In this document: piece by piece, positions 3,545 through 62,481 of the stretch | Layout of the letters: each line of letters starts with the position of its first letter | Position numbering within the stretch: the first letter of the stretch is position 1 | Source: Candidatus Moranbacteria bacterium RIFCSPHIGHO2_01_FULL_55_24 | GTDB lineage: Bacteria; Patescibacteriota; Minisyncoccia; Moranbacterales; UBA1568 | Reading direction: 5' to 3' | Length of the DNA stretch: 64,000 nt | NCBI GenBank assembly: GCA_001786575.1 | Contig: MFRW01000011.1 | Location: forward strand, 22,201-86,200 | Position numbers and translations under genes: made by a program | The notes under the pieces: model-generated | Databases searched by the model: none | Told to the model about the DNA's origin: nothing | What the model saw: only the letters and a program-made list of their open reading frames with translations

Positions 3545-6015
3545 GCAGCCTCCTGGATCTTGATGCGTTCCAGAATCTCGCTCTTCACGATAGAAGCATC
3601 GCGCCCATAGCGGAGACGCGAGAGCTCTTTTAAGGCATTCGCCACTTCCTGATTGCCATTCGATGGCGGATACGTCTTCATATTGAAAGGCTTCGTGAGC
3701 TCATTGTTGAGAAGGAGCCTCACGAAACAGCGGTAATTGTCTACATTGACCAGGTCCTGCGCGGAAAAGACCGGTGCGAACTGCTTTTCCAGGAATTCCG
3801 CATCATCCGGTCCTACGCGGAAGGAAATGAGCGAACCCACATTCCCGAATACCGCTTTGGATATCTCTTCCTTCAGCTGGCCGATGAACTGGTGTGCCAG
3901 GACCAGGACCAGGCGGTATTTCCGAGCTTCGGAGAGGATCTGTGCGATGGAAGTCGTCGTCACATTCTGAAACTCATCCAAGTAAAGGTAGAAATCCGAA
4001 CGCTCTTCTTCGGGCATATCGACGCGCGACAGAGCCGCCATGAGGATCTTTCCGACGATGATCATACCGAGAAGGCGCGCATTGATCTCTCCCAGACGCC
4101 CTTTGGAGAGATTCACTAAGAGGATTTTCTTCTGGTCCATGACGTCGCGGAAATTGAAGGCGCTCTTCTGTTGCGCGATAATCGGCCGCATCAGGTCGTT
4201 TGAAATGAAAGCGGTGAGCTTCGAAGTGATATAGGGAACCATATTGGCCAGAGCGGCTTCGCCTCCGGCCTTCTCGGCTTCTTTCTGCCAGAAATCCCGT
4301 ACGATCGGGTTCTCGCAGTGGGAGAGTTTCATGCGCCGGAAATTCTCATCCGCAAGCACTTTCGGGATCTCCATGAGCGTCGAACCGCTCTCGGGATGTT
4401 CCATGACCAAGAGCATGGCGTTCCGCATATACTGCTCGAACATCGGGCCTCCCGTCGCCTTCATATCGTAGAGCTGGTCGAAGATGCCGATCATCTCGTT
4501 GATGACGAACGTTTTCTGCTCGGGGTGAGCCGGGTCATACTCGAGCATATTCATACCCAGAGGCTTGCCGGTGTCTGCCGGATCGAAGACGATGACATCT
4601 TCGGCACGCTCTTTCGGGATGGACGCGAGGATATCCTCTATCGCATCGCCATGCGGATCGATGAAGCAAAACCCTTTGCCGGCTCGGGCATCCTTCTTCG
4701 CCATTTCCTGGAGGAAATTCGACTTTCCGACGCCGGTCTGCCCCACCACATACATGTGGCGGCGGCGATCGGCATCCGTGATACGGATCTCCGTCTCCGT
4801 ACCGCGGTAGTCATTGAAGCCGAGGAGCATCCCTTCATTCGGGATGTTGATCGGCGGAGCAGCCGCTCCGGCCTTCAGCCACTTGATCTTAGGCGTAGCC
4901 GTCGTAGAGATCGGGAAGTGGAAAATGCTCGCGAGCTCTTCGGTGTTCAGAAGGAAAGAATGGTCTTCATCGAAATTCCGGAAAACATAGTGGAAAGCCG
5001 CTTCGCGCGTCTTGATCCGCTTCCTGACGCGGAAACGGTTGATATCGTGGTTCTCGAACTGACCGAAGGCGCTCTCCATGTGTCCGAGGATCTCATCGGC
5101 GCGAGACTGGGTATCAGCAGAAGCCAAAAGGCGCAGATTGACGCGGAAGGCGCTCTTGCTCGTCTTCTGGTCGATCGCTTTCACAAGCTCTTCCTCGTGA
5201 GGCGTCAGCATGACAGGCTTCTTCTCGCGATCAAGCGTGCCCTTCTTATTGGCCGGACTAAGAGCGCTCATGATATCCTTTCCCATTTCGTTGCCGGCTC
5301 TCTGCATCGTTTTGCCTTTCTTCAGATCCTGGATCCGCTTGCCTTCCTGGATATGCCGGGCGATCTGCTTGCCCTCTTGGCGCCAGACGGCTCCGGCCGG
5401 AGCGAGCACCAGCTGCATCACCGCGCCTTCGCTCGCGGTGTTGAGCTTGCTTAATGAATTCGATATCCCGTTGAGCGGATCGACCCCGAGATCGCGATAG
5501 GTCACGAGCGGAAGAGCGTGATGATGAGCAAGCTCCAGTTCTGCCACCGCTACCTTGCTCCCCGGCGCGAAAATCGTGTAGTCAGGGACGCGCTCTATGG
5601 TCGCTTCCGGGAAAAAGCTATGCACCTGTTTCTCGACGCTTTCCCGGAAGCGCTTCGGGATGCCGAGATAGAAAAAGATCTCCTCGCTCGAAGAGGGATT
5701 GGCGATTTCGAAAACGATCGTCGGAGCATGATAGAGGAGGCGCGAAAGGAAATTCCCCGGATGCTTCAGATTGGAAAGCGAAACCAGAAGCTGCTCCATG
5801 GCGAGAATCTCTTCTTTCCAAGCATCAGCATTCTGGCCGGCATCCTGCTTGCGGACAACTTGAACGACCTCCAGTTCCATCATGAGCGACTGGTTCACCT
5901 GCCGCCGGAAGCGTATGAAGCTCCTCGCGACCAGAAACCCCCCGCTCCCCAGGGTGACGAACCCCAGGAACCAGGTAAAAGGAATGAAAATACTATTGAA
6001 ATCGAACTGATTCAT
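3541..6015 (-). CDS. membrane-anchored P-loop ATPase of the type IV coupling protein (VirD4/TraG/TraD, TraG-D_C-like) family with an unusual ~420-aa N-terminal domain
   Basis: N-terminal hydrophobic anchor IFIPFTWFLGFVTLGSGGFLVARSFI; Walker A VVGQTGVGKSNFL; Walker B YLYLDEFQNV (the DEF variant typical of T4CPs); downstream LVLAHQFIGQL matches the T4CP xQSxxQL motif. A GGAGG SD lies 4 nt upstream of the ATG. The stop overlaps the convergent gene by 4 nt (CTAG). Confidence 0.6.
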   Translation of the reverse strand: MNQFDFNSIFIPFTWFLGFVTLGSGGFLVARSFIRFRRQVNQSLMMELEVVQVVRKQDAGQNADAWKEEILAMEQLLVSLSNLKHPGNFLSRLLYHAPTIVFEIANPSSSEEIFFYLGIPKRFRESVEKQVHSFFPEATIERVPDYTIFAPGSKVAVAELELAHHHALPLVTYRDLGVDPLNGISNSLSKLNTASEGAVMQLVLAPAGAVWRQEGKQIARHIQEGKRIQDLKKGKTMQRAGNEMGKDIMSALSPANKKGTLDREKKPVMLTPHEEELVKAIDQKTSKSAFRVNLRLLASADTQSRADEILGHMESAFGQFENHDINRFRVRKRIKTREAAFHYVFRNFDEDHSFLLNTEELASIFHFPISTTATPKIKWLKAGAAAPPINIPNEGMLLGFNDYRGTETEIRITDADRRRHMYVVGQTGVGKSNFLQEMAKKDARAGKGFCFIDPHGDAIEDILASIPKERAEDVIVFDPADTGKPLGMNMLEYDPAHPEQKTFVINEMIGIFDQLYDMKATGGPMFEQYMRNAMLLVMEHPESGSTLMEIPKVLADENFRRMKLSHCENPIVRDFWQKEAEKAGGEAALANMVPYITSKLTAFISNDLMRPIIAQQKSAFNFRDVMDQKKILLVNLSKGRLGEINARLLGMIIVGKILMAALSRVDMPEEERSDFYLYLDEFQNVTTTSIAQILSEARKYRLVLVLAHQFIGQLKEEISKAVFGNVGSLISFRVGPDDAEFLEKQFAPVFSAQDLVNVDNYRCFVRLLLNNELTKPFNMKTYPPSNGNQEVANALKELSRLRYGRDASIVKSEILERIKIQEAA

Positions 6016-6038
6016 GAACCCTCCTTTTCACGTATGTG

Positions 6039-6455
6039 TTAGCGCAAAGCGTTCCCCTTATCGAGTGCGGCATGAAACTGCTCCGCAAGCTCATCATGCA
6101 TCATATCGAGCGCATAGAAATCCTTGAGCGAGCGCGCTACTTGGACCGCGTGCGGGACCCCCTTGGTTTCTGCCAGCGAAACGAGGTGCGTGATGCGGCT
6201 TTCCTCATCAAGCGCGGCGGTCCGGTCCGCATCGCTCCTCACTTCCTGAATCGGTGCGACCGGATTCGGGGCATGTGCCTCCACCCTTTTCAAAAGCGAC
6301 TGGAAATCCCTGTTTTCCGCAGGAGCTTCTTCTCTCTTCACCTCATGCTCATAGGAGACAGCGGCTTCCAGCGTCTCTTCACGGATTTCCTCTGCTGGAG
6401 CGTCGAGGATATCCTCCTGTTCATGGTTAATCCCATTGCCGAACTCTTCTGCCAT
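6039..6455 (-). CDS. small acidic hypothetical protein (138 aa), co-operonic with the ATPase
   Basis: ORF with strongly acidic composition (many E/D) and predicted helical character; 23-nt gap to the downstream ATPase gene. Confidence 0.5.
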   Translation of the reverse strand: MAEEFGNGINHEQEDILDAPAEEIREETLEAAVSYEHEVKREEAPAENRDFQSLLKRVEAHAPNPVAPIQEVRSDADRTAALDEESRITHLVSLAETKGVPHAVQVARSLKDFYALDMMHDELAEQFHAALDKGNALR

Positions 6456-6472
6456 AGCGTTGTACCTAAAGA

Positions 6473-6790
6473 TTACAGCCCTCCCAGATTTTTCTTCATC
6501 TCTTCCGTGAATTCCTGCGCGACTTCGCGCACAAAGACATTGTATCCCGGAATGCTCTTTTCGAAAAAGGCTTCGATTTCTTCCGCAGAAGCGCCCCGGT
6601 CCAGAAGACCTTCGTATTCCGTCACGCCGCTCTCGCCGATTTTTTCCATCGTCGCGAGAAAGAGACGTTTGATGAACGCTTCTCCCATCTGTTCGAGCAG
6701 CGCATCCCGGCGCTCTTCGGGCACCTGTTCAAGCTGGAACTCTTCTGCAAACTGCTTCTTCAATGCTTGGAGATCTGGAGTCATACGCAA
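6473..6790 (-). CDS. small acidic hypothetical protein (105 aa), co-operonic
   Basis: ORF with acidic, helical composition (EEFQLEQVPEERRDALLEQMGEAF...); 12-17 nt gaps to its neighbours. Confidence 0.5.
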   Translation of the reverse strand: MRMTPDLQALKKQFAEEFQLEQVPEERRDALLEQMGEAFIKRLFLATMEKIGESGVTEYEGLLDRGASAEEIEAFFEKSIPGYNVFVREVAQEFTEEMKKNLGGL

Positions 6791-6802
6791 AAAATATATG
6801 GT

Positions 6803-9406
6803 TTAGAATTTGAAATCGAAATCCGGATCAGCCATGCGGCGGCGCATGATGAGCGTCGTGATCCGGAGCGTGTAGCTATTGATGTCTTCGCGGCTCTTGA
6901 GATCCGCTGCTTTGCCGAACTGTTCCCGTGCCGCATCGGTAAACGATGCCAGCCGCTCCATCTGGCTCGGGTGGAGAGGATTCAGGCGGCGGCTGTAATC
7001 ATATTCCGGGTTCTCCAGCAGATGTTCATGCACCCGGAGCACCCGGTCCACCTTGATGCCTCCGAGGTTCTTCGCTCCGAAGCTGAATTGATCCGTTCCG
7101 AGAGACTGGATTTCCGGCGTTTCGAAGATATGCATGCGCGTCTGGATCAGCTCTTCTTTGGCTGTGCTGAAAAGATCCGGATGCTCCTTGAAAAAGGCTT
7201 TGTGGTCGCTCAATTCCTGGAGCTCCCGCGCGCTCAAGTCCTGCTCCGACCAAGGAAGACTCTTTTCTCCTGTCCCTCCGAGATTTTCCGGGAGGAGATT
7301 TTCCGGCTTTCCTTCGGCCTGGCCCGGGGTATCTACGGGCGTCTCATGATTCTCCAAATAGGTATCGAGATCGAGCGAGGTTTTCGCTACTGCTTCCACC
7401 GGCTCTGCTCCAGCCGCTTCGAGAGCTGCTACAGCCTTGCCATCGAGAATCGCTTGAGTCTCTTCCGGAGAGAGAATCTTCTCAAGCGAGAGCGTATCTC
7501 CGACATGGATAGCATTGATATCACCGCTCGGGAATCCGGCTGCCTGGAGTTCTTCCGGCGAAAGAGTCGGTAGTTTATTGGCAATCGCATTCTCAAGCGC
7601 CTGGATGACGCGTGCCTTCTCTCCCGGATCCATATCGGCCGGCAGACGCGCTTCGAGCACTCCCCAGAGGCCCTTGCCGCTATCGGCAGCGGTTACCAGA
7701 TGTTCCGCGAGCAGAGCCTTCGGAGACGTTTCTGCTACCGCCTGCGCCACGTTGTCAGGATCAGAGATTCCTTCTGCAATAGCATGCGGAACTCCTTCCG
7801 CTGGAAGTTCCGGGGCTATCGGAGAAGGAACCGCCTCATCAGCCAGATCAGGAGCCGGCTCGGCTGCGATCGCTTCATCAAGGGCGTTTTGCGGCGGCGT
7901 TTCAGGTGCAAGTGCCGGCTCGGTTGCCTCTGCTCCCGGCGTATCCGCTTGCAGAATATCCGAAGCGAAAGCTATTCCCGTACCGAAGGTTACAGCTGCT
8001 CCCTTGCGGAAAAGCGCGGCCCGCTTGGCTTGCTGCATCTTGCTGTCGAGCGAAGCGATGTCTTTCGTCAGAAGTTCTTTGAGTCTTTCAAAAGATTCAG
8101 CGGTCGGCAGAGCTTCGGAAAAAGTGTGTGTCTCTCTGGTAAGCGCCAAGAGTTCTTCATCGATCTCCTTTTCAGCCGCTTTCTCGGCCCGTTTCTCCGC
8201 ATATCCTTGCATGAGGACTTCTCCCGTTACTGCGCCGCCGGCACCGGCCATGAAGCGCCGTAATGTCACGATTGCGCCTCCCAGCGCGGCTCCGCCAGAA
8301 AGAGAGAGCGCTCCTGCGCCAGCGAAGCAAGCCGCTGCCAAAGCGAACTTCTGCGGACGTGAAAGGCTGTTATAGGCCTTGCCAAGACGCTCGTATGCAT
8401 CCAGGGCCCTCCCGCCCAGACCTTTCCGCTCCATGCGCACATCAGTCCGCGTTGCTACGAGATTCTTCGCTTCCTCGAATTTGAAATAGCGGAGGAGCGC
8501 CGCCATCTCGTGCTTGAGTTCGGTTCCTTTCAGTCCGCTTTTCTTCAGCTGCTCCAGCTCGAGCTCCTGAAGAGCAGTCAGTGCGCCCTCGTACTGCTCC
8601 CTCCGATAGCGCGTATCCTGGTCCTCCTCCGTGTCGCTCTTCATGCGGAAAAACGCCCGGAGCTGCTTCCAGGCATGTGATTTTTCGTAGTCTTCTTCCG
8701 CGAAGCGCCTCCGCATATCGGAAACCTCCTCCCGGCGGAGAGCGATCTCTTCGTTAAGATTCCTGGCCGGAACGGATTCCTTTTCTTTCTCGAGAGACTC
8801 GACAGACGCCGGTTCGGCTTCAGTCGGCTTCGGAACCTCCTCGGTCTGCGCTTCCGGCTCGGGAGCGGATTCAGGCTTCACGGCGTTCCCCTCTTCCCGG
8901 TCGGAAACTTCCTCCGCAACCAGAGGTATCTCGACACCAGGAACAGTCTCTTCCTGCTTTGAAGGCTTTTTCCCGCGCCGCCGCAGCGAAAGTATCTTTC
9001 CTTCCTCCGCATCCGGCATCGGCTCCGAAGGCATGGTCTCCGGCTGTGGCGTTTCCGGGCCCGAAGACTGCTCTTCTCCCTTAGGATGTTTCAAAAATGT
9101 GTACTTTTCCCTCACCTCGGACTGGCTTCCGAAAAGGAGCGTGCTTCCTGGGTGGAGCGCATCGTCTTCGCCTTCTACCACATGCGCTTCCACACCTCCT
9201 TGATCCGAGACGCTGTCGATACGTATCTCCGTGCCTTCCGCAGAAGTGAATCGATCTCCGACACGGAGCCCCTCTCCTTCCGCTGATTTTTCGGGCAAGT
9301 TCTGTTCGGGATTTTTCCCAGATGCTTTTTCCGGAGAATCAAAAACAGCCTCCGCTGATTCTGCTTCAGTCATTTTCCTTGCGCCGGCAGCTTCTCCTTC
9401 GGGCAT
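6803..9406 (-). CDS. large (867 aa) acidic, largely low-complexity protein with glycine/alanine-rich hydrophobic segments and a C-terminal globular region; first gene of the operon
   Basis: N-terminal ~330 aa E/P/S-rich; hydrophobic G/A-rich stretch FALAAACFAGAGALSLSGGAALGGAIVTLRRFMAGAGGAVTG and a second one, AAVTFGTGIAFASDIL; A/P/E-rich linker; ~250-aa C-terminal domain with no recognisable motif. Confidence 0.55.
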   Translation of the reverse strand: MPEGEAAGARKMTEAESAEAVFDSPEKASGKNPEQNLPEKSAEGEGLRVGDRFTSAEGTEIRIDSVSDQGGVEAHVVEGEDDALHPGSTLLFGSQSEVREKYTFLKHPKGEEQSSGPETPQPETMPSEPMPDAEEGKILSLRRRGKKPSKQEETVPGVEIPLVAEEVSDREEGNAVKPESAPEPEAQTEEVPKPTEAEPASVESLEKEKESVPARNLNEEIALRREEVSDMRRRFAEEDYEKSHAWKQLRAFFRMKSDTEEDQDTRYRREQYEGALTALQELELEQLKKSGLKGTELKHEMAALLRYFKFEEAKNLVATRTDVRMERKGLGGRALDAYERLGKAYNSLSRPQKFALAAACFAGAGALSLSGGAALGGAIVTLRRFMAGAGGAVTGEVLMQGYAEKRAEKAAEKEIDEELLALTRETHTFSEALPTAESFERLKELLTKDIASLDSKMQQAKRAALFRKGAAVTFGTGIAFASDILQADTPGAEATEPALAPETPPQNALDEAIAAEPAPDLADEAVPSPIAPELPAEGVPHAIAEGISDPDNVAQAVAETSPKALLAEHLVTAADSGKGLWGVLEARLPADMDPGEKARVIQALENAIANKLPTLSPEELQAAGFPSGDINAIHVGDTLSLEKILSPEETQAILDGKAVAALEAAGAEPVEAVAKTSLDLDTYLENHETPVDTPGQAEGKPENLLPENLGGTGEKSLPWSEQDLSARELQELSDHKAFFKEHPDLFSTAKEELIQTRMHIFETPEIQSLGTDQFSFGAKNLGGIKVDRVLRVHEHLLENPEYDYSRRLNPLHPSQMERLASFTDAAREQFGKAADLKSREDINSYTLRITTLIMRRRMADPDFDFKF

Positions 9407-9429
9407 ATCATTTTATTTTCTCCTGTTTC

Positions 9430-9438
9430 TGGTATAAT
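9430..9438 (+). promoter_or_regulatory. extended -10 promoter TGGTATAAT for the downstream glycosyltransferase operon
   Basis: Perfect TGnTATAAT in an AT-rich divergent intergenic region, 75 nt upstream of the ATG at 9513. Confidence 0.45.
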
Positions 9439-9466
9439 TTTAGCATAACAAACAAAAAACAAAAAA

Positions 9467-9502
9467 GGATCTGCGTCTGCTTTTTCCATACTTTGCAGAT
9501 CC
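9467..9502. repeat. perfect 8-bp inverted repeat GGATCTGC..GCAGATCC (20-nt spacer) flanked by A-tracts, in the 5' leader of the GT-C gene and in the divergent promoter region
   Basis: Read directly from the sequence: ggatctgc at 9467-9474, gcagatcc at 9495-9502. Confidence 0.6.
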
Positions 9503-9512
9503 GGAAAAATCT

Positions 9513-11111
9513 ATGCCTTCACGCGCATTCCATCGCCCCCTCCTCTGGCTCGGACTCCTGTTCATCATAGCTCTCGGGGTGTTCCTCCGGAGCTACCAGA
9601 TCGAGTCCATCCCGGCCGGACTCTACCCCGACGAGGCCACGAACGGAACCGATGCGATCCATGCGATCGAAACCGGCAATTACCTTCTCTTCTACCCGAA
9701 CAACTACGGCCGCGAAGGATTGTTCATCAATCTCCAAGCCCTCGCTCTCCAGACTTTCGGAATAAGCATCGCCGCGCTCAAGTTCTGGTCGATCGTTTTC
9801 GGCTCATTGAGTATCCTCGGCATCTACCTGCTCGGCGTAGAGCTCTTCCACCGGCGCTCCGGGGGCCTCATAGCCGCCTTCATGCTGGCTACCTCCTTCT
9901 GGGCTATCAACTTCTCGCGCATCGGCTTCCGGGCCATCATGACCTCTTTCCTGCTGTCCTTCGCCTTTTACTTCTTTTTCCGCGGGCTCCGCAGGCACCG
10001 CTACCTGGATTTCACCATTTCAGGCCTCCTCTTCGGCCTCGGAATCCACACTTACATCGCTTTCCGGCTTACCCCTCTCATCCTGATCCTGCTCCTGCCC
10101 TTCCTCATGCTTTCCTATGAGAAATTCCTGAAGCGCTTCTGGAAACATGCGCTCGTATTCGCAGCCGCCGCCTTCATCGCGGCCGCTCCCATGCTCTACC
10201 ACTTCTTCGTAGCTCACCCGGAAGATTTCGCTTCCCGTTCCGCTGCCGTCTCTATCTTCTCCCCGGAAATAAACAAGGGCGACTTCTGGGGAACGCTCGG
10301 GAAAACCTTCGGGTTGAGCATGGCGAAGTATAACTTCTGGGGCGATCAGAATTGGCGGCACAACTACCCGCCTTACCCGATCCTCGACCCTCTCGTCGGC
10401 ATGCTCTTTCTCGCCGGCTTCCTCTACATCATCTGGCAGACGATTACGCTCCTCGGCCGGCGCATCCGCGAAGGCGACCGCGACACCCGCCTCGTCAGGA
10501 ACGCCTTCCTTCTCGGGACCTTCTTCGTCATGCTCATGCCGGAATTCCTGACCGAAGAAGGCTTGCCACACGCCCTGCGCGCTATCGGCACCCAGGTACC
10601 GGTCTTCCTCATCGCCGCCCTTCCGGCCCTTTGGATCGTCAAGAAAGCCTATCGCTCGCTCCCTTCCACACGCTTCGCGCTCCTTTCCTTGCTTACCATC
10701 CTCCTTGCCGGAAGCGCCGTCATAAATATCACCAAATACTTCGTCTTCTTCGCAGCAAGCCCTCACCAGCACGGCGCCTTCAACGAGAACTACACGAACA
10801 TGGCCAAATACCTCTTGAGCCTGCCGGAAGACACCCATAAATACGTCTATGCCAACGCCGGCGGCACGAATATCGATAACGGCCTCCCGGTGACAGCACA
10901 GTCGATTACGTTCCTCACGCATGGGAAGATCAAGAACCTCGAATTCCTGAATCCGGACACGCGGATCGTCCGCCCGGCCGTCATCATCCTCATGAACTAC
11001 GATAACGGAATCGCGGAACGCATCCTGAAACGGACTCCGGGAGCGGAAATCCAGAAGATCGACCTGCACCCTGGATTCGGCAGCGATTTCCTCTCGATCG
11101 TGATCCCATAA
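9513..11111 (+). CDS. GT-C fold glycosyltransferase, PMT/ArnT-like (GT39/GT83 family), multi-pass membrane protein
   Basis: Many TM helices; first periplasmic loop carries the conserved acidic motif (LYPDEATNGTDAIHAIETGNYLLFYPNNYGREGL), as in dolichyl-phosphate-mannose protein mannosyltransferases and ArnT. Confidence 0.8.
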   Translation: MPSRAFHRPLLWLGLLFIIALGVFLRSYQIESIPAGLYPDEATNGTDAIHAIETGNYLLFYPNNYGREGLFINLQALALQTFGISIAALKFWSIVFGSLSILGIYLLGVELFHRRSGGLIAAFMLATSFWAINFSRIGFRAIMTSFLLSFAFYFFFRGLRRHRYLDFTISGLLFGLGIHTYIAFRLTPLILILLLPFLMLSYEKFLKRFWKHALVFAAAAFIAAAPMLYHFFVAHPEDFASRSAAVSIFSPEINKGDFWGTLGKTFGLSMAKYNFWGDQNWRHNYPPYPILDPLVGMLFLAGFLYIIWQTITLLGRRIREGDRDTRLVRNAFLLGTFFVMLMPEFLTEEGLPHALRAIGTQVPVFLIAALPALWIVKKAYRSLPSTRFALLSLLTILLAGSAVINITKYFVFFAASPHQHGAFNENYTNMAKYLLSLPEDTHKYVYANAGGTNIDNGLPVTAQSITFLTHGKIKNLEFLNPDTRIVRPAVIILMNYDNGIAERILKRTPGAEIQKIDLHPGFGSDFLSIVIP

Positions 11112-11146
11112 GCAAAGAACGCTAACTCATTACTTCTGTACACCCT

Positions 11147-13045
11147 ATGGATTTCCTCAAAGAGCATGCTTCCAAACTGGTAGCGGCTATCCTTCTGGTA
11201 TTCTTCGGATTGAATCTCTTCATCTCTTTCCAAGAATCCACGACGATGGATGAGAAAGCGCATATCCCCTCCGCCTATAGCTACGTCCGCTACGGCGACA
11301 TGCGTCTCAACCCTGAACATCCGCCCCTCTTGAAAGACCTCGCCGGACTGCCGCTTCTTTTCTTGGATCTCGAATTCCCTCTCCAGTCCAAAGAATGGCA
11401 AGAGGGCGTGAACGAACAGTGGGTACTGGGAGACAAATTCATCAACTGCTCCGCTCCGAGCGAAGCCTGCAACGATCCGAACGCCGTCACCTTCTGGTCC
11501 CGCCTCCCTATAATCATCATCGCGGTGCTCCTCGGCCTCATGCTCTTCCTCTGGACCAAAGAGCTTGCCGGGACCTTGGCGGGCCTGTTCGCTCTCATCC
11601 TCTACGCCTTCGATCCGAACATCATCGCCCACAGCCACTACGTCACGACCGACATCGGCATCGCCGCCTTCCTCTTCTTCTCGTTCTATTTCTTCGTGCG
11701 CTTCCTCCAGAATCCGAGTGCCAAGAACATTTTCTGGAGCGGTATTTTCCTCGGCCTCGCCCAGCTCGCGAAATTCTCGGCCGTTCTCCTTTTCCCGATC
11801 TTCGGGCTCTTCGTCATCCTCTACGCGCTCTCCAAGGCCAAGCCGGCAGGCGTAACGCTTGCCACGCCGCTCTGGAAGATCAAGGAAATCTTCCTCTTGG
11901 GGCTCAAATTCATAGGAAGCGTCGTCATCTGCTTCGCGCTCATCTGGCTCCTCTACTACCCGAACACCATGAACATGCCCGGCGAGAAACTCGTCGAGGT
12001 AGCGCATGTCATGTTCCCGGACAAAGGCCTCGGCCCGTTCGCAAAGGATTTCATCGAAGCGACCCATGCACACCCTCTTATCAAGCCCTATTCCGAATAC
12101 TTCCTCGGCGTCTTCATGGTGTTCGCGCGCGTCGCTGGCGGCAATACCTATTACTTCCTCGGGAACGTTTCCAACCACGCCTCTCCCTGGTATTTCCCTG
12201 TCGTCTTCCTCCTGAAGGAGACCCTGCCCTTCCTCTTCCTGCTCGTCGCCACCTCCCTCTACGCGTTCTACCGCATCGGGAAGAGCTTCCGCGAGGCCCA
12301 TCTCCGCTCACCCAAAGACTTCTTCGCGTTCCTCGGCCGCTCTTTCCAATCGAGGATCGTCCAGTACTTGAGCGTCTTCTTCGTGCTCTTCTACAGCTAC
12401 GTGAGCATCACGGGGAACCTCAACATCGGCTTCCGTCACCTCTTCCCGATCCTGCCGTTCCTCTACATGCTCATCGGGAAAACTCTCTTCGACATGATCC
12501 GGCGCCAGAAAGATGCCTTCACCCAGAAGGTTTCCCTCATCATCTTAGGCATCTTCTCGCTCATCATCATGGCTATCCCGATCCTGACCTACCCGAGCTA
12601 TCTCTCCTACTTCAACGGAGCCTTCGGCGGACATGAGACCGGCTACCGCTACGTGACTGATTCGAACTACGACTGGGGACAGGACGTCAAGCGCCTCAAA
12701 GTCTTCGTCGATAGCCACAATCGCTGCAAAAGCGGCATGACGTTCTCCGGAGATGATTGCACGCTTGCCGGCACCCTGCCTCCGATAGACCGGATCCGCG
12801 TCGACTACTTCGGCGGCTCCAGTCCGGCATACTACCTCGGAGACAAATTCGTTTCCTGGCACTCTTACAGCCCGCCGGAAGCCGGCTGGTACGCGATCTC
12901 CATCGGCTTCTTTCAGGAGAACATCCACACGGAGGCGAAGCCGGGCGATCTCAATTACCGCTGGCTGGCAAAATATGCCCCCGTGGCGAGGGCCGGAGAT
13001 TCCATCTTCATCTTCTACGTTCCGGAAGTTCCGGAGAGCGAATAG
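11147..13045 (+). CDS. second GT-C fold glycosyltransferase, PMT/ArnT-like paralog
   Basis: N-terminal TM helix then TMDEKAHIPSAYSYVRYGDMRLNPEHPPLL (DE motif loop); more than 10 predicted TM segments; larger C-terminal soluble domain. Confidence 0.8.
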   Translation: MDFLKEHASKLVAAILLVFFGLNLFISFQESTTMDEKAHIPSAYSYVRYGDMRLNPEHPPLLKDLAGLPLLFLDLEFPLQSKEWQEGVNEQWVLGDKFINCSAPSEACNDPNAVTFWSRLPIIIIAVLLGLMLFLWTKELAGTLAGLFALILYAFDPNIIAHSHYVTTDIGIAAFLFFSFYFFVRFLQNPSAKNIFWSGIFLGLAQLAKFSAVLLFPIFGLFVILYALSKAKPAGVTLATPLWKIKEIFLLGLKFIGSVVICFALIWLLYYPNTMNMPGEKLVEVAHVMFPDKGLGPFAKDFIEATHAHPLIKPYSEYFLGVFMVFARVAGGNTYYFLGNVSNHASPWYFPVVFLLKETLPFLFLLVATSLYAFYRIGKSFREAHLRSPKDFFAFLGRSFQSRIVQYLSVFFVLFYSYVSITGNLNIGFRHLFPILPFLYMLIGKTLFDMIRRQKDAFTQKVSLIILGIFSLIIMAIPILTYPSYLSYFNGAFGGHETGYRYVTDSNYDWGQDVKRLKVFVDSHNRCKSGMTFSGDDCTLAGTLPPIDRIRVDYFGGSSPAYYLGDKFVSWHSYSPPEAGWYAISIGFFQENIHTEAKPGDLNYRWLAKYAPVARAGDSIFIFYVPEVPESE

Positions 13046-13100: not shown

Positions 13101-14063
13101 CTACTCTTTCTTCTTGGCTTTCTCTCCTTCTTTGGGGTCCTTGGCGTTCTCTTTGTTCTCTTCGGATTTCTTTTCTTCGGGCGCATTCTTGAAAGCATAG
13201 TAGATGCGGTTCTCCGTCCGGAGATCGATATAGGCGAGTTCTCCGAGCTTTTCCTGCGGCAATTCGCCGTCGAAAAAAAGCGCGAGCGAATCGATCGTCT
13301 CTTGCGGCTCAAGGCTCGTATTCACATAGAGTTCGTACCCGCCCTCTGCGCGGAACCGCACTTCATCGGAAAAGCGCGAAGGCGTGACAGATTCTTTTTC
13401 CAGTTTGATTCCGAAGCGCTCATCCAGAAGACTGTAGAGAGCGAGAAGGCGTGTAGAAAACGGGTAGCTGAAGACCGGCTGGCCGAGATCGACAGGAAGC
13501 CCGCTCTTGTCGATAACGGTATACACCGGGAGGCGTTCCTCGGGAAGTCCGATTATGGCACGGCTCTCACGCGTACGGTTCTCCTCATCCAGGAGATAGC
13601 ACGGTCCTCCGGAACACCAGAGTACTCCCGCTTCCCGTTCCTCCACCCGGAGGAAGAGGCTCGCCGGGAAACGCTTCTCGACTCTGGCGGAGCGGATTTC
13701 CGGATAGGTCTCCAGAAGCGCGGCCGAGAACTTCTCGGTCCGGAAGAGGAGGTAATTTTTCGCCGAGAAGACGCCGAGCCACGTGTCAGAAGTCGCTTGG
13801 GAGAAGAAATCCTCAAGCTTTTCCGTACTCACTCGGGAATTCCCCGATACGGAAAAACGCTCCAAGAGAAGGAGCGGGGAAACGAGCAAAAGGTAGCCGA
13901 GCGTCCCGAGAAACACGAGCCACAGGAAAAGCGAGAGGAAAAACATTCCCGGGCGGCCGGTTTTTTCTTCCGAAGCTCCGCGCTTGGCGCGCTTCTCTTT
14001 GCGCTTCGGAAGAAAAACGTTTTTATGGAAAGCTCCTGGTTTTTTCTTGCGGAACACACGCAT
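13101..14063 (-). CDS. ftsQ: cell division protein FtsQ/DivIB-like (TM helix + POTRA + FtsQ domain) with a lysine/glutamate-rich C-terminal tail
   Basis: TM FFLSLFLWLVFLGTLGYLLLV followed by ERFSVSGNSRVSTEKLEDF (POTRA-like) and VEKRFPASLFLRVEEREAGVLW. The start is placed at the internal Met (MRVFRKKK); the listed ORF is N-terminally over-extended. Confidence 0.6.
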   Translation of the reverse strand: MRVFRKKKPGAFHKNVFLPKRKEKRAKRGASEEKTGRPGMFFLSLFLWLVFLGTLGYLLLVSPLLLLERFSVSGNSRVSTEKLEDFFSQATSDTWLGVFSAKNYLLFRTEKFSAALLETYPEIRSARVEKRFPASLFLRVEEREAGVLWCSGGPCYLLDEENRTRESRAIIGLPEERLPVYTVIDKSGLPVDLGQPVFSYPFSTRLLALYSLLDERFGIKLEKESVTPSRFSDEVRFRAEGGYELYVNTSLEPQETIDSLALFFDGELPQEKLGELAYIDLRTENRIYYAFKNAPEEKKSEENKENAKDPKEGEKAKKKE

Positions 14064-14068
14064 CTTGG

Positions 14069-14968
14069 TTAGAGAGCTAGGAAAAGCGATTCGAGTGCCA
14101 GGCGCGCATTGCCCTGGCTGTGTTTCAAAAGAGAGAGTGTCTGGTTCACATTCTCCAGAAAGAGGAAAAACTGGCTGATTCGCTTCGGCTGCTCTTCGCG
14201 CGCCGCCTGCCGATGGATCCCCGGCAAGTACCACTCCAGAAGACGGATAGCCCGGGGAACGTCCTTCGCCAGTTCTTCCGCCAGCTTGAGCCGTTCTCTC
14301 AAGGAAAGCGCGGAGAGGCGGAATAAGAGAGAGAGGAGTTCCTTGTCCCGTGCAAACCCCTGACTGTCTTCGAGCGCTCGGAAAAGGATTCCCGGTCTCC
14401 CGAGAGAGAAGAAGAAATCCGGCAGAGACTCTCCCTGGGATCGGAAAAGCGGCGTGAACTTCTCGGCAAGAAGCGCTTCCGGCACGAACTGGAACCGTGT
14501 TGTCGCTACGCGTGATAAGAGCGTGGAGAGGAGACTCCCGGCATCATGCGTTACCAGGATGATCACCGCCTGCGGTTCCGGCTCCTCTACGAACTTGAGG
14601 AGTGCGTTCTGCGCCGTATGCGAAAGGCGATGGGCATCTCGGATGATGAGCACCCGATAGCCCGACTGGGGCCTTTTCGAGAGGAACTGGATGCCTTCGC
14701 GCGCTTCTTCGGCGGATATGCTTTTCTCTTTCGTCACCCCCCGCTTCTTTTCCTGGCGAGGCGAAAGAATCATCACATCGAGCGGGTGCGGCAAGGCTTC
14801 GGTCGGTTCGAAATCCGGCTCGCCCGCAAGCAGACAGGCGAACTCGAAAGCCACAAGGGCCTTCCCGACGCTCTCCGGTCCGGAGAAAAGATAGCTCTGG
14901 CTGATGTTGCCGGATGTGGCAAATTGCCGGAGAAGCGCTCGCTCTTTTTCGTGTCCGATGATCTGCAT
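14069..14968 (-). CDS. holB: DNA polymerase III delta-prime subunit
   Basis: MQIIGHEKERALLRQFATSGNISQSYLFSGPESVGKALVAFEFACLLAGE (degenerate P-loop typical of delta-prime) and AHRLSHTAQNALLKFVEEPEPQAVIILVTHDAGSLLSTLLSRVATTRF. Start moved to the internal ATG at 14968, just downstream of the upstream gene's stop at 14979. Confidence 0.8.
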   Translation of the reverse strand: MQIIGHEKERALLRQFATSGNISQSYLFSGPESVGKALVAFEFACLLAGEPDFEPTEALPHPLDVMILSPRQEKKRGVTKEKSISAEEAREGIQFLSKRPQSGYRVLIIRDAHRLSHTAQNALLKFVEEPEPQAVIILVTHDAGSLLSTLLSRVATTRFQFVPEALLAEKFTPLFRSQGESLPDFFFSLGRPGILFRALEDSQGFARDKELLSLLFRLSALSLRERLKLAEELAKDVPRAIRLLEWYLPGIHRQAAREEQPKRISQFFLFLENVNQTLSLLKHSQGNARLALESLFLAL

Positions 14969-14978
14969 AGGGAATCGC

Positions 14979-16130
14979 TTAGCCTGCTGAATTATTTTCC
15001 AAGGCGAGAACGGCCTTGATCTTTTCCTGGAAGGCCTGCTTCGAGAAGCGCTCGGCAGCCCTGCGGACGAGAGTCCGGTCAAAGGATGATTCCGAAGCGA
15101 TGAAGCGTGCGAGAGCGGCGGCAAAGACTTCCGGTGTCTGGGATTCGACGAAGAGGCCGGTTTTCTTGTCCTCGATGATCTCGCGGATACCGCCGTAGTC
15201 ATAGGCGATCACCGGAACACCGAACGAGAGCGCTTCGACGGCCACCATGCCGAAATCCTCTTCCGAAGGGAGGATGAGCGCCCGGGCTTTCTGATAGAGC
15301 GCCGCCAGAGCTGCGTCATCCGCCTTCCCTGCGAAACGCACCGTCTTACCCGCGGCTTTCCGCAGGTGCTTCGCTTCCGGCCCGCTCCCGACGACCACGA
15401 GCGGCACTCCCAGCTTGTTCGCTGCATCAATCACGACATCCGCCTTCTTGGAAGCGGTCAGGCGCGCCACCATGAGGAAGTGTTCGCGCTTCCCGGCGTC
15501 GCTTGCAGAAATGTCCGGAAAACGTTCGGCCAAGTCGAGCGCCGGCGGATAGATGACTTCGCTTTCCCGGCGGTAGTACTTGCGGACCCGTTCAGCTGTG
15601 AAAAAGGAATTAGAAAGAAGGATATCCGGCCGGTCTGCCGCCTGCACATCCCAGACCCGGAGGTAGCTCATGAAGAGCCTCACCAGGAAACGGAAGAGGC
15701 CGGACGGGCGCGCTTCGCGGAGATACGCCTCGTGGTAGTCCCACGCGTAGCGCATCGGAGAATGAAGATAGGCGATGTGCCAGGTGTGGAGCCGCGTCAC
15801 GACGCCTTTGCTCCAGGCGCCGGAAGAAGACAGGATGACATCGTATTCCCGAAGATCGAACGTCTCGACCGCCACCGGAAAGAACGGCAAGAGCAGGCGA
15901 TAGCGCCTCCGGAGAAATCCCGGCAACTTCTGAAGCCAGGAAGTCCGGATTGTAGCCCCAGGCACTACGCGCTCCGTAACCGCAGGATCTGCCAAGAGCG
16001 TATAGATGGGTGCCTCCGGGTAGAGCTCATGGAGCGCCGCAAGTACGCGCTCGGCTCCCCCGAAACTGACAAGAAAATCATGCACGAGTGCGATCCTCCT
16101 ATCCCCTTTCTTTCCCTGATGCTGTTCCAT
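14979..16130 (-). CDS. glycosyltransferase family 4 (GT-B fold)
   Basis: C-terminal EDFGMVAVEALSFGVPVIAYDYGGIREII motif (E-x7-E GT4 signature). Confidence 0.85.
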   Translation of the reverse strand: MEQHQGKKGDRRIALVHDFLVSFGGAERVLAALHELYPEAPIYTLLADPAVTERVVPGATIRTSWLQKLPGFLRRRYRLLLPFFPVAVETFDLREYDVILSSSGAWSKGVVTRLHTWHIAYLHSPMRYAWDYHEAYLREARPSGLFRFLVRLFMSYLRVWDVQAADRPDILLSNSFFTAERVRKYYRRESEVIYPPALDLAERFPDISASDAGKREHFLMVARLTASKKADVVIDAANKLGVPLVVVGSGPEAKHLRKAAGKTVRFAGKADDAALAALYQKARALILPSEEDFGMVAVEALSFGVPVIAYDYGGIREIIEDKKTGLFVESQTPEVFAAALARFIASESSFDRTLVRRAAERFSKQAFQEKIKAVLALENNSAG

Positions 16131-16137
16131 ATCGGAT

Positions 16138-17262
16138 CTACTTTGCGATATTGAAAAACTCTGCGATCCTCGCGCTGCACTTTTCCCAACTGAAACGCTC
16201 TACATTTCTCATCCCTTTACCGATTATATCATTCCTCACTCCCTCGTTCGTGAGCACCAGCTGGATGCCCTCGGCAATGCTCTCTTGCCTATCCGGGTCG
16301 ACATACACCGCTCCCTCGCCCCCTACCTCCGGGAGAGAAGAAGCTTCCGAAGTGACTACCGGCACCCCGACGCTCTGGGCTTCCAGGACCGGAATGCCGA
16401 ACCCCTCATAGTGGGACGGAAAAACGAAAACATCCGCCTCTTTCAGCAAGGACCACTTCTCTTCCTCGGTAATATAGCCCGGGATGAGGATATCTTGGCG
16501 ATAACGGGAAGCTTCCAGCTTCTTTCGTATGGCTTCCGCCCCATAGCCCCATTTGCCCGCCAGTACTAACCGGTGTGGGATCCGCAATTTGTCTTTCAGG
16601 AGTTCGAACGCTTCGATAATCTTCACAATGTTCTTCCTCTGTTCGAGCCTTCCGATGAAGAGGAGATACGGCCTCTCGACCGCCTGCCGGCTCCCGGTTC
16701 TCGGCGCTTGGCTCTTGGTGACTTCGTATCCCTCGTACACCACGGAAATCTTCTCTTCGGGAATGCCGTACAGGCGCATGATGTCGCGCTTGGTGTTTTC
16801 CGACACCGCGATAATCCTTTCGGCGGCGCGGCAAGAATAGCGGATCGAGGCCCGCATATAGAGACGATCCCAGAACGAATAGGCTTCCGGACAGAATTCA
16901 TATTCCAGTCCGTGTACCGTAACGATCGTATTTTCCGGATGGACGCGCGGCACCGTATGCGCCGGAACGAACAGGACGTCCGGCTCGGAGAGGAGCATCT
17001 CGATCGACAGCCCTACTTGCGTCCAGAAGCGCGGTGCCCAGATACCCTTCACCTTCCAATTAGCCGGCAGGTCAAAATCGATCTCCGGATACAGAAAAAC
17101 GGGTTTCCCCTTCCTTATCCGAAGCTTCTTCCTGACATACAGCCGCACCTCCGCTTCGCGCGGCAATGCCTCGCGCAGATGCTTGATGGTCTGATAAGCG
17201 TATTCTTCTATCCCCGTCCGATAGCGGAGAAACGCCCGCGATGCATCGATACCGATAATCAT
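16138..17262 (-). CDS. glycosyltransferase family 4 (GT-B fold)
   Basis: EGFGIPVLEAQSVGVPVVTSEASSLPEVGG motif. Start placed at MIIGIDASRA; the listed ORF extends to 17355. Confidence 0.85.
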   Translation of the reverse strand: MIIGIDASRAFLRYRTGIEEYAYQTIKHLREALPREAEVRLYVRKKLRIRKGKPVFLYPEIDFDLPANWKVKGIWAPRFWTQVGLSIEMLLSEPDVLFVPAHTVPRVHPENTIVTVHGLEYEFCPEAYSFWDRLYMRASIRYSCRAAERIIAVSENTKRDIMRLYGIPEEKISVVYEGYEVTKSQAPRTGSRQAVERPYLLFIGRLEQRKNIVKIIEAFELLKDKLRIPHRLVLAGKWGYGAEAIRKKLEASRYRQDILIPGYITEEEKWSLLKEADVFVFPSHYEGFGIPVLEAQSVGVPVVTSEASSLPEVGGEGAVYVDPDRQESIAEGIQLVLTNEGVRNDIIGKGMRNVERFSWEKCSARIAEFFNIAK

Positions 17263-17363
17263 ATGTATTTCAACAAACCAGAAGAGGATACCTGATGAAA
17301 ATTTTTGAGGGGTTCGGGCGGCACGAAGATTTCTCAAAATCCAGAGCTGGTACAAATAAAAAA

Positions 17364-27766: not shown

Positions 27767-28792
27767 TTATTGAAGCTGCTTACGGAGGAATTCTGCCGAG
27801 ACTTCCGGCAGGATAGTCGAGACTTCGATCCCGGTAGAGAGCTCGAAGCCCGCCCAAGTGGCCGTGCGCGGGATGATCTCTATATGCCACCGGTAGTGAG
27901 GATAATCGCTTCCGTCACAAGGAGCGGTGTGGATATAGAAGTTATACCCGGGATCATTGAGTCCTTGATGAAGGGCCCGCAAGCTGGCCTGAAGCGCCTC
28001 GGCGCAGGCGAATTTCTCTTCATCGGTAATGCGCTCGAAGTACGGGTTATGGCGCTTGCCGACTACCCATATTTCGAATGCGGCTCGCGAAGCGAACGGG
28101 CAGAATGCCACGAAGTGTTCATTCTCGAAAATCAGCCGTTTCCTGGCTTCCAGTTCATGCGCCACGATAACACTGAAAACGTCTTGCTTCGTGCTCCGAT
28201 AGTAGCGTTCGGCACCGGCAAGATCCAAAGAAAGCCCCGGAGAAACGACTGGAATCGCGATGAGTTGGGAGTGCGGATGGAGAACCGATGCTCCGGAACC
28301 CTTGCCGTGATTATGGAAAATCTGGATGTATTTGACCGTCTTCTTGTTCATGAGCGCCAAGTAGCGCTCCTGATAAGCGTCGATCACTTCAGCGACCTGC
28401 CAGGTATCGAGGAGCGCGAGCGAACGCTTTGGGTCTCGGGTGACGATTATCTCATGGTGTCCGACACCGCTCATCGCGAAGTATGGGCCTTCCGAGAGAT
28501 CTTTCGCCGTCCGGCTGTTTTGCACGACCGGAAACTTATTCGGAAAAACCCGCAAGCTCCAATCACCGTCATCGCGCCGATAGATAAGGACGTCCTTTTC
28601 TTGTCCGCTCGCTTCAGGGTCTTCAAAAGGATCGCTCTTAGGCTCTTGTACCGGCTGTTCCGCACTCACGAAATCGTCCGGCCGTTTCGCCCGCGCCGTC
28701 GCTATCACCACCCAATCCCCCGTGACGATATCCTGGCGGATTTCCGATTCAGAGGGATGTGCTTTTTTGTTTTCTCCTTTTTTGACTGGCAT
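27767..28792 (-). CDS. galT: galactose-1-phosphate uridylyltransferase (HIT superfamily, GalT type)
   Basis: HPHSQLIAIPVV (GalT HPH motif) and FENEHFVAFCPFASRAAFEIWV. Confidence 0.85.
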   Translation of the reverse strand: MPVKKGENKKAHPSESEIRQDIVTGDWVVIATARAKRPDDFVSAEQPVQEPKSDPFEDPEASGQEKDVLIYRRDDGDWSLRVFPNKFPVVQNSRTAKDLSEGPYFAMSGVGHHEIIVTRDPKRSLALLDTWQVAEVIDAYQERYLALMNKKTVKYIQIFHNHGKGSGASVLHPHSQLIAIPVVSPGLSLDLAGAERYYRSTKQDVFSVIVAHELEARKRLIFENEHFVAFCPFASRAAFEIWVVGKRHNPYFERITDEEKFACAEALQASLRALHQGLNDPGYNFYIHTAPCDGSDYPHYRWHIEIIPRTATWAGFELSTGIEVSTILPEVSAEFLRKQLQ

Positions 28793-28834
28793 TTTTTTCT
28801 TTTTGGTTTCGAAAGGAATGAGCCTGGCCGAACT

Positions 28835-29605
28835 TTACGCTTCAGCTTGCGATTTGCGATACTCGCGGACACGGTAAGCTCCTGTAAGGAAACGCCACCT
28901 TGTCTTGAAGAGATCGATGATCACCTGGATGAACCCGTTCTTGCCGGTAAGAGAGACAGTCGATCCTTCTTCGTTCATCCAGCGTACCGGCATCTGTTTC
29001 ACTCGGAACCCGAGCTTTTCAGAAAGCGCGATGAGCTCGAAGTCGAATCCGAAACGGTCCACTACCATGCGATTCGCGACTGCTTCGGCCGCCTTGGCCG
29101 AGAGTATCTTGAACCCGCACTGGGTATCCGGATACGCCCACAGTCCGAGAACGATTCGGATCAGCCAATTCCCCATATCGCCCATGATCTCGCGGTGTTT
29201 CGGCTGGTGTACCTGGATGAATGCGCCTTCTATGTCGCGGGAGCCGATAACCACATCGTAGCCTTCTTCGAATTGCGGGAGGAATGCGTCGAGATGAGTA
29301 ATCGAAGTAGAGCCGTCAGCATCGAGAAATACCCGGTACCGGCCCGTGGCTTCGAGAAGCCCTTGGCGGACGACGTAGCCCTTGCCATGGTTCTCCTTGT
29401 TATCGATAACGCGTACATGCGGGATCTGGAGGGCGTAATTGCGCGCGATTTCAGCAGTATTGTCCGGGGAGCCATCGACGACAATGAGGATTTCGTAGGT
29501 GTAATTCTTGCTTTTGAGGTATTTGTCGATTTCGAGAAGATTGCGTCCGATACGCTCACCTTCCTTATAGGAAGGTATGATGACAGAGAGAAACGGCTGT
29601 TCCAT
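28835..29605 (-). CDS. GT2 family glycosyltransferase, polyprenol-phosphate sugar synthase-like (Dpm1/Ppm1/GtrB-like)
   Basis: LSVIIPSYKEGERIGRNL, DGSPDNT and DADGST motifs (GT-A DXD). Confidence 0.85.
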   Translation of the reverse strand: MEQPFLSVIIPSYKEGERIGRNLLEIDKYLKSKNYTYEILIVVDGSPDNTAEIARNYALQIPHVRVIDNKENHGKGYVVRQGLLEATGRYRVFLDADGSTSITHLDAFLPQFEEGYDVVIGSRDIEGAFIQVHQPKHREIMGDMGNWLIRIVLGLWAYPDTQCGFKILSAKAAEAVANRMVVDRFGFDFELIALSEKLGFRVKQMPVRWMNEEGSTVSLTGKNGFIQVIIDLFKTRWRFLTGAYRVREYRKSQAEA

Positions 29606-29646
29606 AGGTCAAGAGAAGAATTCAAAAAATTATGGATTCCAAGAAT

Positions 29647-29674
29647 ATTTTACCATAATCATGCGTATTTCCAA
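29647..29674 (-). promoter_or_regulatory. candidate promoter (TTGGAA-16-TGGTAAAAT, extended -10) for the GT2-galT-tpiA-fba-gap operon
   Basis: Reverse complement of 29669-29674 is TTGGAA; rc of 29647-29655 is TGGTAAAAT. Confidence 0.45.
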
Positions 29675-29709
29675 AGAAAAAAGGAGGTTATCTATCGGAA
29701 TAACCTCCT
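29675..29709 (-). terminator. rho-independent terminator downstream of ruvX
   Basis: Perfect 10-bp inverted repeat AGGAGGTTAT/ATAACCTCCT (8-nt loop) followed on the minus strand by UUUUUUCUUUGG. Confidence 0.6.
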
Positions 29710-29745
29710 CATTCGAGAGTGCTCAAGGAGCTCCTGTCCCTCTTC

Positions 29746-58906: not shown

Positions 58907-58944
58907 GAGACGAAATCCCCCTTCTAAAGCCGAAAACTACCCTC

Positions 58945-62347: not shown

Positions 62348-62481
62348 GTTGAGAATATCGTTATAGAGGGAAGAAAAGGAACCATTTACCCGCCCTTACC
62401 AGAGCTTTAACGGAGCGGCACGAGTTTGGACAGATTATCATGCGGAAGGGGTCTCGTCAATATGACGCTCGAACCGGAGGC

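Follow-up and report, generated by a model that had tools for sequence, protein, structure and literature searches.

The subject of this analysis is a pair of neighbouring genes, named here GTC-A and GTC-B, in a window of 64,000 nucleotides (the whole stretch of DNA analysed) from Candidatus Moranbacteria bacterium RIFCSPHIGHO2_01_FULL_55_24. Both encode what are very probably membrane glycosyltransferases of the GT-C class, and the explanation favoured for them, with modest confidence, is that they form the extracytoplasmic arm of a multi-component glycosylation system, which would draw on lipid-phosphate-linked sugars and modify a glycoconjugate of the envelope. The two genes and the region that precedes them are:

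9513 to 11111, plus strand: GTC-A, 532 amino acids (aa), an open reading frame (ORF) with a match to PF13231
11147 to 13045, plus strand: GTC-B, 632 aa, an ORF with a PMT_2 domain plus a partial PMT domain
9407 to 9512, no strand: divergent, AT-rich intergenic region of 106 bp, with the gene of a giant membrane protein on one side and GTC-A on the other

The genes lie 35 nt apart on the same strand. No terminator-like signal was found in the gap by a terminator scan and the two are probably co-transcribed. The intergenic region, in which 'GGTATAATT' can be read, is presumed to be the promoter region of this A-B operon; a consensus promoter scan of the operon for promoters and terminators gave no signal above shuffled expectation.

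A preliminary description of this DNA had placed two tandem PMT/ArnT-like GT-C genes at 9513-13045, and these coordinates are exact. Classification with hidden Markov models (HMMs), the check proposed there, showed that both proteins exceed the gathering cut-off of PMT_2 (PF13231, 26.1 bits), GTC-A with 42.9 bits and GTC-B with 45.4 bits. Only GTC-B passed that of PMT (PF02366; 36.5 bits vs a cut-off of 22.7), in a match covering profile positions 57-234 only, and GTC-A gave no PF02366 match even at E<=10. The assignment to the GT-C fold and the PMT_2 class stood, whereas the more specific labels GT39 and ArnT did not (see below).

Two deposited Moranbacteria 'hypothetical proteins', A2808_01380 and A2808_01385, are 100% identical to GTC-A and GTC-B. 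Homologues of each protein run to thousands, the closest 120 being 57-74% identical, and at E<=1e-30 the GTC-A family by itself comprises 2,000 representatives (50% clusters). GTC-A and GTC-B are thus confirmed as genuine, conserved genes of a Candidatus Moranbacteria metagenome-assembled genome, and they belong to very large, mostly uncharacterised GT-C families. A recent tandem duplication was considered as the origin of the pair and rejected, as BLASTP found no similarity between the two proteins (E 0.59) and the profile HMM of neither matched the family of the other.

Searches of the PDB by sequence, with the single proteins and with 26-sequence profiles, gave no match for GTC-A or GTC-B; a connection to solved GT-Cs came only from comparison of structural models. 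The AlphaFold2 models, which are confident (pLDDT 84, GTC-A 84.4; pTM 0.87), each contain about 11 transmembrane (TM) helices followed by a C-terminal soluble alpha/beta domain, which is predicted to be extracytoplasmic and spans aa ~425-532 in GTC-A and aa ~513-632 in GTC-B. Foldseek against the PDB returned AglB/STT3 (E ~1e-7 for GTC-A and ~1e-6 for GTC-B), PglB, ArnT and Pmt4 for both, and on these matches both are assigned as GT-C(A)-fold enzymes. ALG, PimE, AftA, AftB and Emb are also among the structural matches of the pair, GT87/PimE/Aft being weaker than PMT/ArnT/STT3. Comparison of predicted folds cannot decide the subfamily.

The expected acidic motif is present in both proteins. In GTC-A it is 'YPDEATNG', with D40-E41 directly after TM1, and in GTC-B 'MDEKAHIP', with D35-E36 in the same place; each Asp-Glu is invariant in a 26-sequence alignment. 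The earlier statement that these are two large multi-pass membrane proteins with an acidic DE after TM1 is thereby borne out. GTC-A has a second invariant motif, 'KYNFWGDQNWRHNYPPYP' (aa 272-289; window 10326-10379), in a flexible outer loop. The further invariant motifs of GTC-B are 'NPEHPP', 'DPNxxxHxHxxTTD' and 'DSNYDWGQD', the last of which (aa 505-513; window 12659-12685) lies just past the last TM helix. In both models the clusters of invariant charged and aromatic residues map to outward-facing loops. The N-termini are positively charged and were for that reason placed inside, which would put the DE motif, the long flexible loops and the C-terminal domains of the models on the outer face.

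A Trp-Gly motif of similar form occurs in both proteins, as 'NFWGDQNW' in GTC-A and 'NYDWGQD' in GTC-B. Each is invariant and lies in an outward-facing loop of low confidence. The sites differ: that of GTC-A is between TM7 and TM8, and that of GTC-B is past the last TM helix, where oligosaccharyltransferases (OSTs) have WWDYG. The resemblance may reflect a common substrate or may be coincidence.

The conservation of the pair was followed in 82 loci encoding B homologues (43-72% identity), essentially all from Moranbacteria. GTC-A lies directly upstream of B in 73 of these, down to 43% identity, with gaps of 7-35 nt, and the gene order is the same around a more distant A-family member. This adjacency, together with retention of both genes in a contig of another lineage (L084, below), argues for functional coupling of GTC-A and GTC-B. 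Downstream of B the same genes recur:

FtsQ: downstream of B in 69 of 82 loci
HolB: downstream of B in 68 of 82 loci
GT4 (first): downstream of B in 65 of 82 loci
GT4 (second): downstream of B in 60 of 82 loci
MreB: downstream of B in 54 of 82 loci
MurA: downstream of B in 52 of 82 loci

The upstream neighbours are equally constant: the giant membrane protein, which lacks a Pfam match, small proteins (one DUF5663) and a VirD4/TrwB-like ATPase. In the ~9 loci without A, B abuts the giant protein directly and the upstream block is retained. At three loci (L036:7938-9633, L061:6117-7791 and L076:4407-6010), which include the complete Moranbacteria genome CP064994.1, the A homologue is split into two overlapping ORFs and B is intact. 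The split could be due to frameshift errors or to true decay of A, and either cause would fit B being the more indispensable partner.

Many homologues carry the label 'glycosyltransferase family 39' or 'ArnT-like' in the source databases. These labels stem from the PMT_2 Pfam domain alone, and the subfamilies that they name were examined separately. Like the GT39 enzymes (yeast Pmt1/2/4, and actinobacterial Pmt, which works with Ppm1), the window pair has a loop-1 Asp-Glu and ~11 TM helices, and the donor would likewise come from a Dpm1/Ppm1-like GT2. In contrast to GT39, neither protein has a MIR domain, each has a distinct C-terminal soluble domain, and PMT_4TMC (PF16192), the C-terminal domain of GT39, was undetected in both at E<=10. 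With PF02366 also missing from GTC-A, membership of the GT39 protein O-mannosyltransferases was rejected.

These results bear on the main rival explanation, protein O-glycosylation, in which A and/or B would transfer a hexose from a polyprenyl phosphate to Ser/Thr of exported proteins, in the manner of actinobacterial Pmt or the Pgf system of S. mutans. The PF02366 score of GTC-B and the PMT-like layout of ~11 TM helices speak for it; the missing PMT_4TMC domain and the want of a PF02366 match in GTC-A speak against it. Taken with the evidence from the GT2 and the giant protein discussed below, it seems rather unlikely. By analogy, a PMT_2 match does not in itself mean a protein acceptor, since most PMT_2 GT-Cs characterised in Gram-positive bacteria act on teichoic acids or wall polysaccharides. 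GtlB, GttB, GtcC, CsdD, CsdF, GtsC and GacL take single sugars from C55-P-sugars and attach them to lipoteichoic acid, wall teichoic acid or wall polysaccharides, and HHpred relates them to the same PDB structures that were matched here (Rismondo, Gillis and Gründling, PMC8035078).

Modification of a membrane lipid by an ArnT-type (GT83) enzyme, with lipid A or the head group of another phospholipid or glycolipid as acceptor and altered surface charge as the result, is the least probable of the explanations and is hardly to be expected. Apart from the 'ArnT-like' labels, which go back to the common PMT_2 domain, it can draw on the presence of ArnC among the PDB matches of the window GT2. The ArnT equivalog model NF009784 scored 15.2 bits with GTC-A against a cut-off of 567 and did not match GTC-B, so that membership of ArnT was rejected, and the window genes scanned (64 kb) included neither arnA, arnB, arnD, arnE or arnF nor genes for lipid A. 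Bacteria of the Candidate Phyla Radiation (CPR) are generally regarded as lacking lipopolysaccharide, which also weighs against it.

An OST (GT66) assignment was likewise rejected: STT3 and AglB top the Foldseek lists, yet no STT3 domain is present, and 'NYDWGQD' differs from WWDYG. STT3, YfhO and other GT-C Pfam models gave no match with GTC-A or GTC-B at E<=10. The resemblance of the models to STT3, PglB and AglB is one of fold level only, and an OST-like role for the pair is unlikely.

The sugar donor may be supplied by a GT2 enzyme encoded elsewhere in the window, together with its neighbour:

28835 to 29605, minus strand: GT2, a soluble GT-A enzyme of 256 aa in the Dpm1/GtrB/ArnC class (PF00535, 98.5 bits)
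27767 to 28792, minus strand: GalT-like HIT-family nucleotidyltransferase (DUF4921 / GalP_UDP_transf by Pfam), directly downstream of the GT2

The preliminary description had called the first of these Ppm1/Dpm1-like and placed it at the head of a galT-tpiA-fba-gap operon, and both points hold: the best PDB match is the Dol-P-Man (dolichyl-phosphate-mannose) synthase of P. furiosus, 5MLZ (E 1.7e-13), followed by ArnC and GtrB, and the gene stands first in a row that continues on the minus strand with GalT-like, TpiA, Fba and Gap. By its class the enzyme would suit the role of a polyprenyl-phosphate-hexose synthase, and its candidacy as the source of the GT-C donor is an assumption on that basis. 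Its best NCBIfam scores, with PgfS, the haloarchaeal Dol-P-hexose transferase, AglJ and PpgS, all fall well short of the respective cut-offs. PgfS is the GT2 of a protein O-glycosylation operon with two membrane partners, a match that favours protein O-glycosylation; its score, however, is 61 bits vs a cut-off of 500, and ArnC scores 39.6 bits vs 529.

A sample of 80 GT2 loci (L088-L167, 854 kb in total), in which the GT2 is 72-85% identical, showed this gene to be more conserved than either GT-C. The GalT-like gene is immediately downstream of it on the same strand in all 58 loci with enough sequence (58/58). A GT2 that resembles lipid-phosphate-sugar synthases is thus locked to a hexose-1-phosphate uridylyltransferase-like enzyme at the head of glycolytic genes. 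The GalT-like enzyme would be a supplier of UDP-hexose, and this fixed pairing hints that the donor of the GT2 is a UDP-hexose (Glc/Gal) rather than GDP-mannose. In this respect too the window departs from GT39 systems, and the pairing counts against protein O-glycosylation in so far as that relies on GDP-mannose. One further locus, L087, was considered as a link between the window GT2 and the GT-C genes and was rejected, as the GT2s there are only 27-29% identical.

Evidence on the partners of the B family came from outside the CPR. B homologues were found in three contigs of clearly non-CPR gene content (L050:9995-11938, L083:9001-10923 and L084:9001-11040), which include Ca. Methylumidiphilus (Methylococcales) and carry genes such as Kdp, MCP, CysN, efflux pumps and GH1. 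They are 51-52% identical to GTC-B, whereas some Moranbacteria copies are lower (43%), and they retain every invariant motif of B. In a midpoint-rooted neighbour-joining tree they form one clade nested within the Moranbacteria diversity, and the GC content of the genes is 0.50, against 0.56-0.59 in the flanks. The nesting, the identity and the GC below that of the flanks suggest that these copies were acquired by horizontal transfer from a Moranbacteria-like donor, possibly as a record of contact between episymbiont and host. In L084, a contig with Kdp, MCP, CysN and IS1595 genes, an A homologue (5751-7412; 57% identity, 754 bits) lies one gene from the B homologue (52%), from which it appears that A and B belong together.

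The B homologue of L083 shares its cluster with a GtrA_DPMS_TM protein and a GT2, and that of L050 is two genes away from a GtrB-type GT2 with a TM anchor. These contexts indicate that B-family enzymes act as the GT-C arm of a system of GT2, flippase and GT-C. Both clusters contain GH17-like, GH63-like and GH1 genes, with GH30 in addition in L083, and this points, for these clusters, to a glucan as acceptor or to glucose as donor. The occurrence of transferred B homologues in glucan-type clusters of a proteobacterium is a further point against protein O-glycosylation.

The favoured explanation of the window pair has three steps. A cytoplasmic GT2 would load a hexose from a nucleotide sugar onto polyprenyl phosphate, the lipid-linked sugar would be flipped across the membrane, and the outward-facing Asp-Glu at the start of loop 1, with conserved Arg, His and Asp of other outer loops, would pass the sugar to an acceptor on the outer face. 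GTC-A and GTC-B would probably catalyse two different, non-redundant steps on this acceptor, or else form a complex. The acceptor would most likely be no protein but a glycoconjugate of the envelope, either a lipoglycan or a secondary glycopolymer linked to the wall, in view of the PMT_2 precedent, the three-component context of the transferred homologues, the envelope genes and LCP ligase of the window and the failure to find the features of GT39 or ArnT. What the analysis establishes is the fold, family, motifs and predicted topology of the two proteins, the conservation of the pair and the company of B-family genes elsewhere with a GT2 and a GtrA flippase. We infer the donor lipid and its sugar (a hexose, perhaps Glc or Gal), the window GT2 as donor synthase, the flippase, the acceptor and co-transcription. 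Of the pathways put forward in the preliminary description, lipid-linked or surface-glycan modification is the better supported, and the specifics of protein O-mannosylation and of ArnT are weaker.

Among the nearest parallels are the Gram-positive three-component systems, which consist of a GT2 (CsbB/GtlA/GacI), a GtrA or Wzx flippase and a PMT_2-type GT-C (GtlB, GttB, CsdD/F, GtsC or GacL). The window pair shares with these the PMT_2 domain, the best structural relatives (ArnT, STT3, AglB, PglB, AftD-type) and, in an extracytoplasmic loop, an acidic motif that faces outward. The genome also has a Dpm1/GtrB-class GT2, and B homologues elsewhere adjoin a GtrA protein and a GT2. The likeness seen is one of domain and structure rather than of sequence-level orthology to a characterised member, and the tandem of two very different GT-Cs contrasts with the single GT-C per GT2 of these systems. 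In the lipoglycan pathway of the Corynebacterineae, the GT4s PimA/PimB are followed by the GT2 Ppm1 and then by the GT-Cs PimE/MptA/MptB. The window region has two GT4s, a Ppm1/Dpm1-class GT2 and two GT-Cs, and PimE, AftA, AftB and Emb are among the structural matches; however, phosphatidylinositol pathway genes were not seen in the window, GT87/PimE/Aft match more weakly than PMT/ArnT/STT3, and this likeness is one of gene inventory only.

Several observations weigh against the favoured explanation. The preliminary description had put the GT2 and the GT-C pair in one pathway, for which the comparison of loci gave no support: no genomic link was seen in 162 loci. The GT2 is 16 kb from the pair and absent from the 82 GT-C loci, and no A- or B-family gene lies within 10 kb of the GT2 in any of the 80 GT2 loci. 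It also lacks the TM anchor typical of GtrB/CsbB, so that in both position and anchoring it is unlike the GT2 of a three-component system. The 64-kb window of this ~1-Mb genome yielded no candidate for a flippase of GtrA, Wzx or SMR-like type. B occurs without an adjacent A in the ~9 loci mentioned, and synteny within one class, Moranbacteria, may be inheritance and not function. What is seen in the proteobacterial contexts applies to the transferred copies and may not hold for the originals in Moranbacteria. Finally, all substrate assignments, of donor and acceptor alike, are inferred.

The missing flippase would be accounted for if one member of the pair, most plausibly B, were an Agl23-like lipid-sugar translocator or acceptor-binding partner and the other the transferase. 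The sole NCBIfam match of GTC-B is TIGR03663, 'flippase activity-associated protein Agl23' (46 bits, residues 116-474). In Haloarcula hispanica this GT-C-like putative flippase partners the GT2 Dol-P-hexose synthase Agl22, a combination of GT2 and GT-C-like membrane protein that resembles the present one, and Agl23, once purified and placed in liposomes, is reported to flip lipid-linked oligosaccharide (PMC11182771). A review also anticipates that small GT-Cs may work in two-protein arrangements (PMC8035078). Nevertheless, 46 bits is far under the Agl23 cut-off of 126.25, and membership of that family was rejected for GTC-B. Unlike Agl23, GTC-B keeps all the catalytic hallmarks of a GT-C: its DE is invariant, as are many residues of the outer loops that are typical of an active enzyme. 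The organism is also bacterial and not archaeal. The B homologue of L083 coexists with a dedicated GtrA-family protein, and the absence of a GtrA/Wzx candidate applies to an inspection of 64 kb of a ~1-Mb genome. A translocator role is therefore considered distinctly improbable.

Possible acceptors of the favoured system are suggested by other genes of the window:

58879 to 60507, plus strand: LCP (LytR-CpsA-Psr) family ligase (PF03816, 140.2 bits)
54673 to 55032, minus strand: DgkA-type small membrane kinase of the undecaprenol/diacylglycerol kinase family (PF01219, 110.3 bits)
14979 to 16130, minus strand: first GT4, cytoplasmic and nucleotide-sugar dependent (PF00534, 106.8 bits)
16138 to 17355, minus strand: second GT4 (PF00534, 122.8 bits; PF13439, 55.7 bits)
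6803 to 9406, minus strand: giant membrane protein, 867 aa, divergent from GTC-A

As judged from their sequences, the LCP ligase and the DgkA-type kinase would imply a secondary polymer attached to peptidoglycan and recycling of a polyprenol or diacylglycerol carrier. With MurA, MurD, MreB, FtsQ, FtsA and FtsZ also encoded in the window, these genes indicate peptidoglycan synthesis in the organism and, probably, the linkage of a secondary polymer to this peptidoglycan. This glycopolymer is a candidate acceptor, as the LCP ligase points to its attachment to peptidoglycan. The first GT4 is a possible builder of an acceptor glycolipid or glycopolymer. Both of the GT4s reported earlier at 14979-17262 are confirmed, except that the second ORF runs to 17355; position 17262 is an internal ATG and likely the true start.

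The giant membrane protein has no Pfam match. Its N-terminal half is charged, hydrophobic segments rich in Gly and Ala lie at the centre, and the tail is acidic and rich in Pro, Ala, Ser and Thr. Counterparts with 789-1153 aa are found at the corresponding place in L001, L040, L073, L085 and L086. As a candidate protein acceptor it is speculative. For protein O-glycosylation this protein with its tail would be one candidate target, and it is in favour of that explanation that the low-complexity protein is always next to the GT-C genes, including loci that lack A.

The giant protein is part of a block upstream of the pair (3541-9406, minus strand) which is kept across Moranbacteria (L001, L040, L073, L085 and L086) and also encodes a VirD4/TrwB-like ATPase of ~825 aa (DUF8128/DUF87) and two small proteins, one of them DUF5663. 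This block may be a CPR-specific secretion or surface apparatus. It is conceivable, if very doubtful, that A and B form a Moranbacteria-specific heteromeric GT-C machine which glycosylates the giant membrane protein or the surface apparatus of the ATPase block. If true, this would amount to a lineage-specific surface glycosylation tied to the episymbiotic lifestyle, and transfer of the pair into methanotroph (Methylococcales) genomes would record a physical association of CPR bacterium and host.

Some ORFs of the region call for care in annotation. On the minus strand, the mechanically called FtsQ-like (13101 to 14234) and HolB-like (14069 to 15202) ORFs overlap by 166 nt, and the HolB-like ORF and that of the first GT4 by 224 nt. 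The HolB-like ORF opens with ~80 Ser/Arg/Pro-rich residues ahead of its Pfam domain. The true starts of HolB and FtsQ are probably further downstream than the first start codon. Long ORFs of up to 675 aa without family matches run antisense to confirmed genes at 27770-29797 (plus), 62440-63960 (plus) and 10020-12301 (minus); these look like artefacts of the 56% GC composition and are not for annotation.

As enzymes, the two are of an ordinary class, and relatives have already been given the label 'glycosyltransferase family 39 / ArnT-like'. Multiple Dol-P-mannosyltransferase-like genes have been mentioned in CPR genomes (PMC4736985, PMC6031116). The literature found on Patescibacteria with GT39, ArnT or mannosyltransferase contained generic remarks only and nothing on the GT-C pair. 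What the present analysis adds is that two unrelated GT-C families are kept paired, that they have apparently been transferred into a methanotroph lineage and that the GT2 is decoupled from them. For annotation, a PMT_2 label should not be taken as protein O-mannosylation, nor should the GT2 be assumed to belong to the same pathway.

The genome is indeed a reduced one, as first described: the organism belongs to the CPR and a complete relative has 1.05 Mb. CPR bacteria (Patescibacteria) combine minimal genomes with life attached to other cells, so that the genes for building the cell surface which they retain probably matter for that lifestyle. Moranbacteria keep two very different GT-Cs side by side amid genes of wall synthesis and division, and their acceptor, if identified, would give a first handle on the envelope glycan chemistry of this uncultured class.

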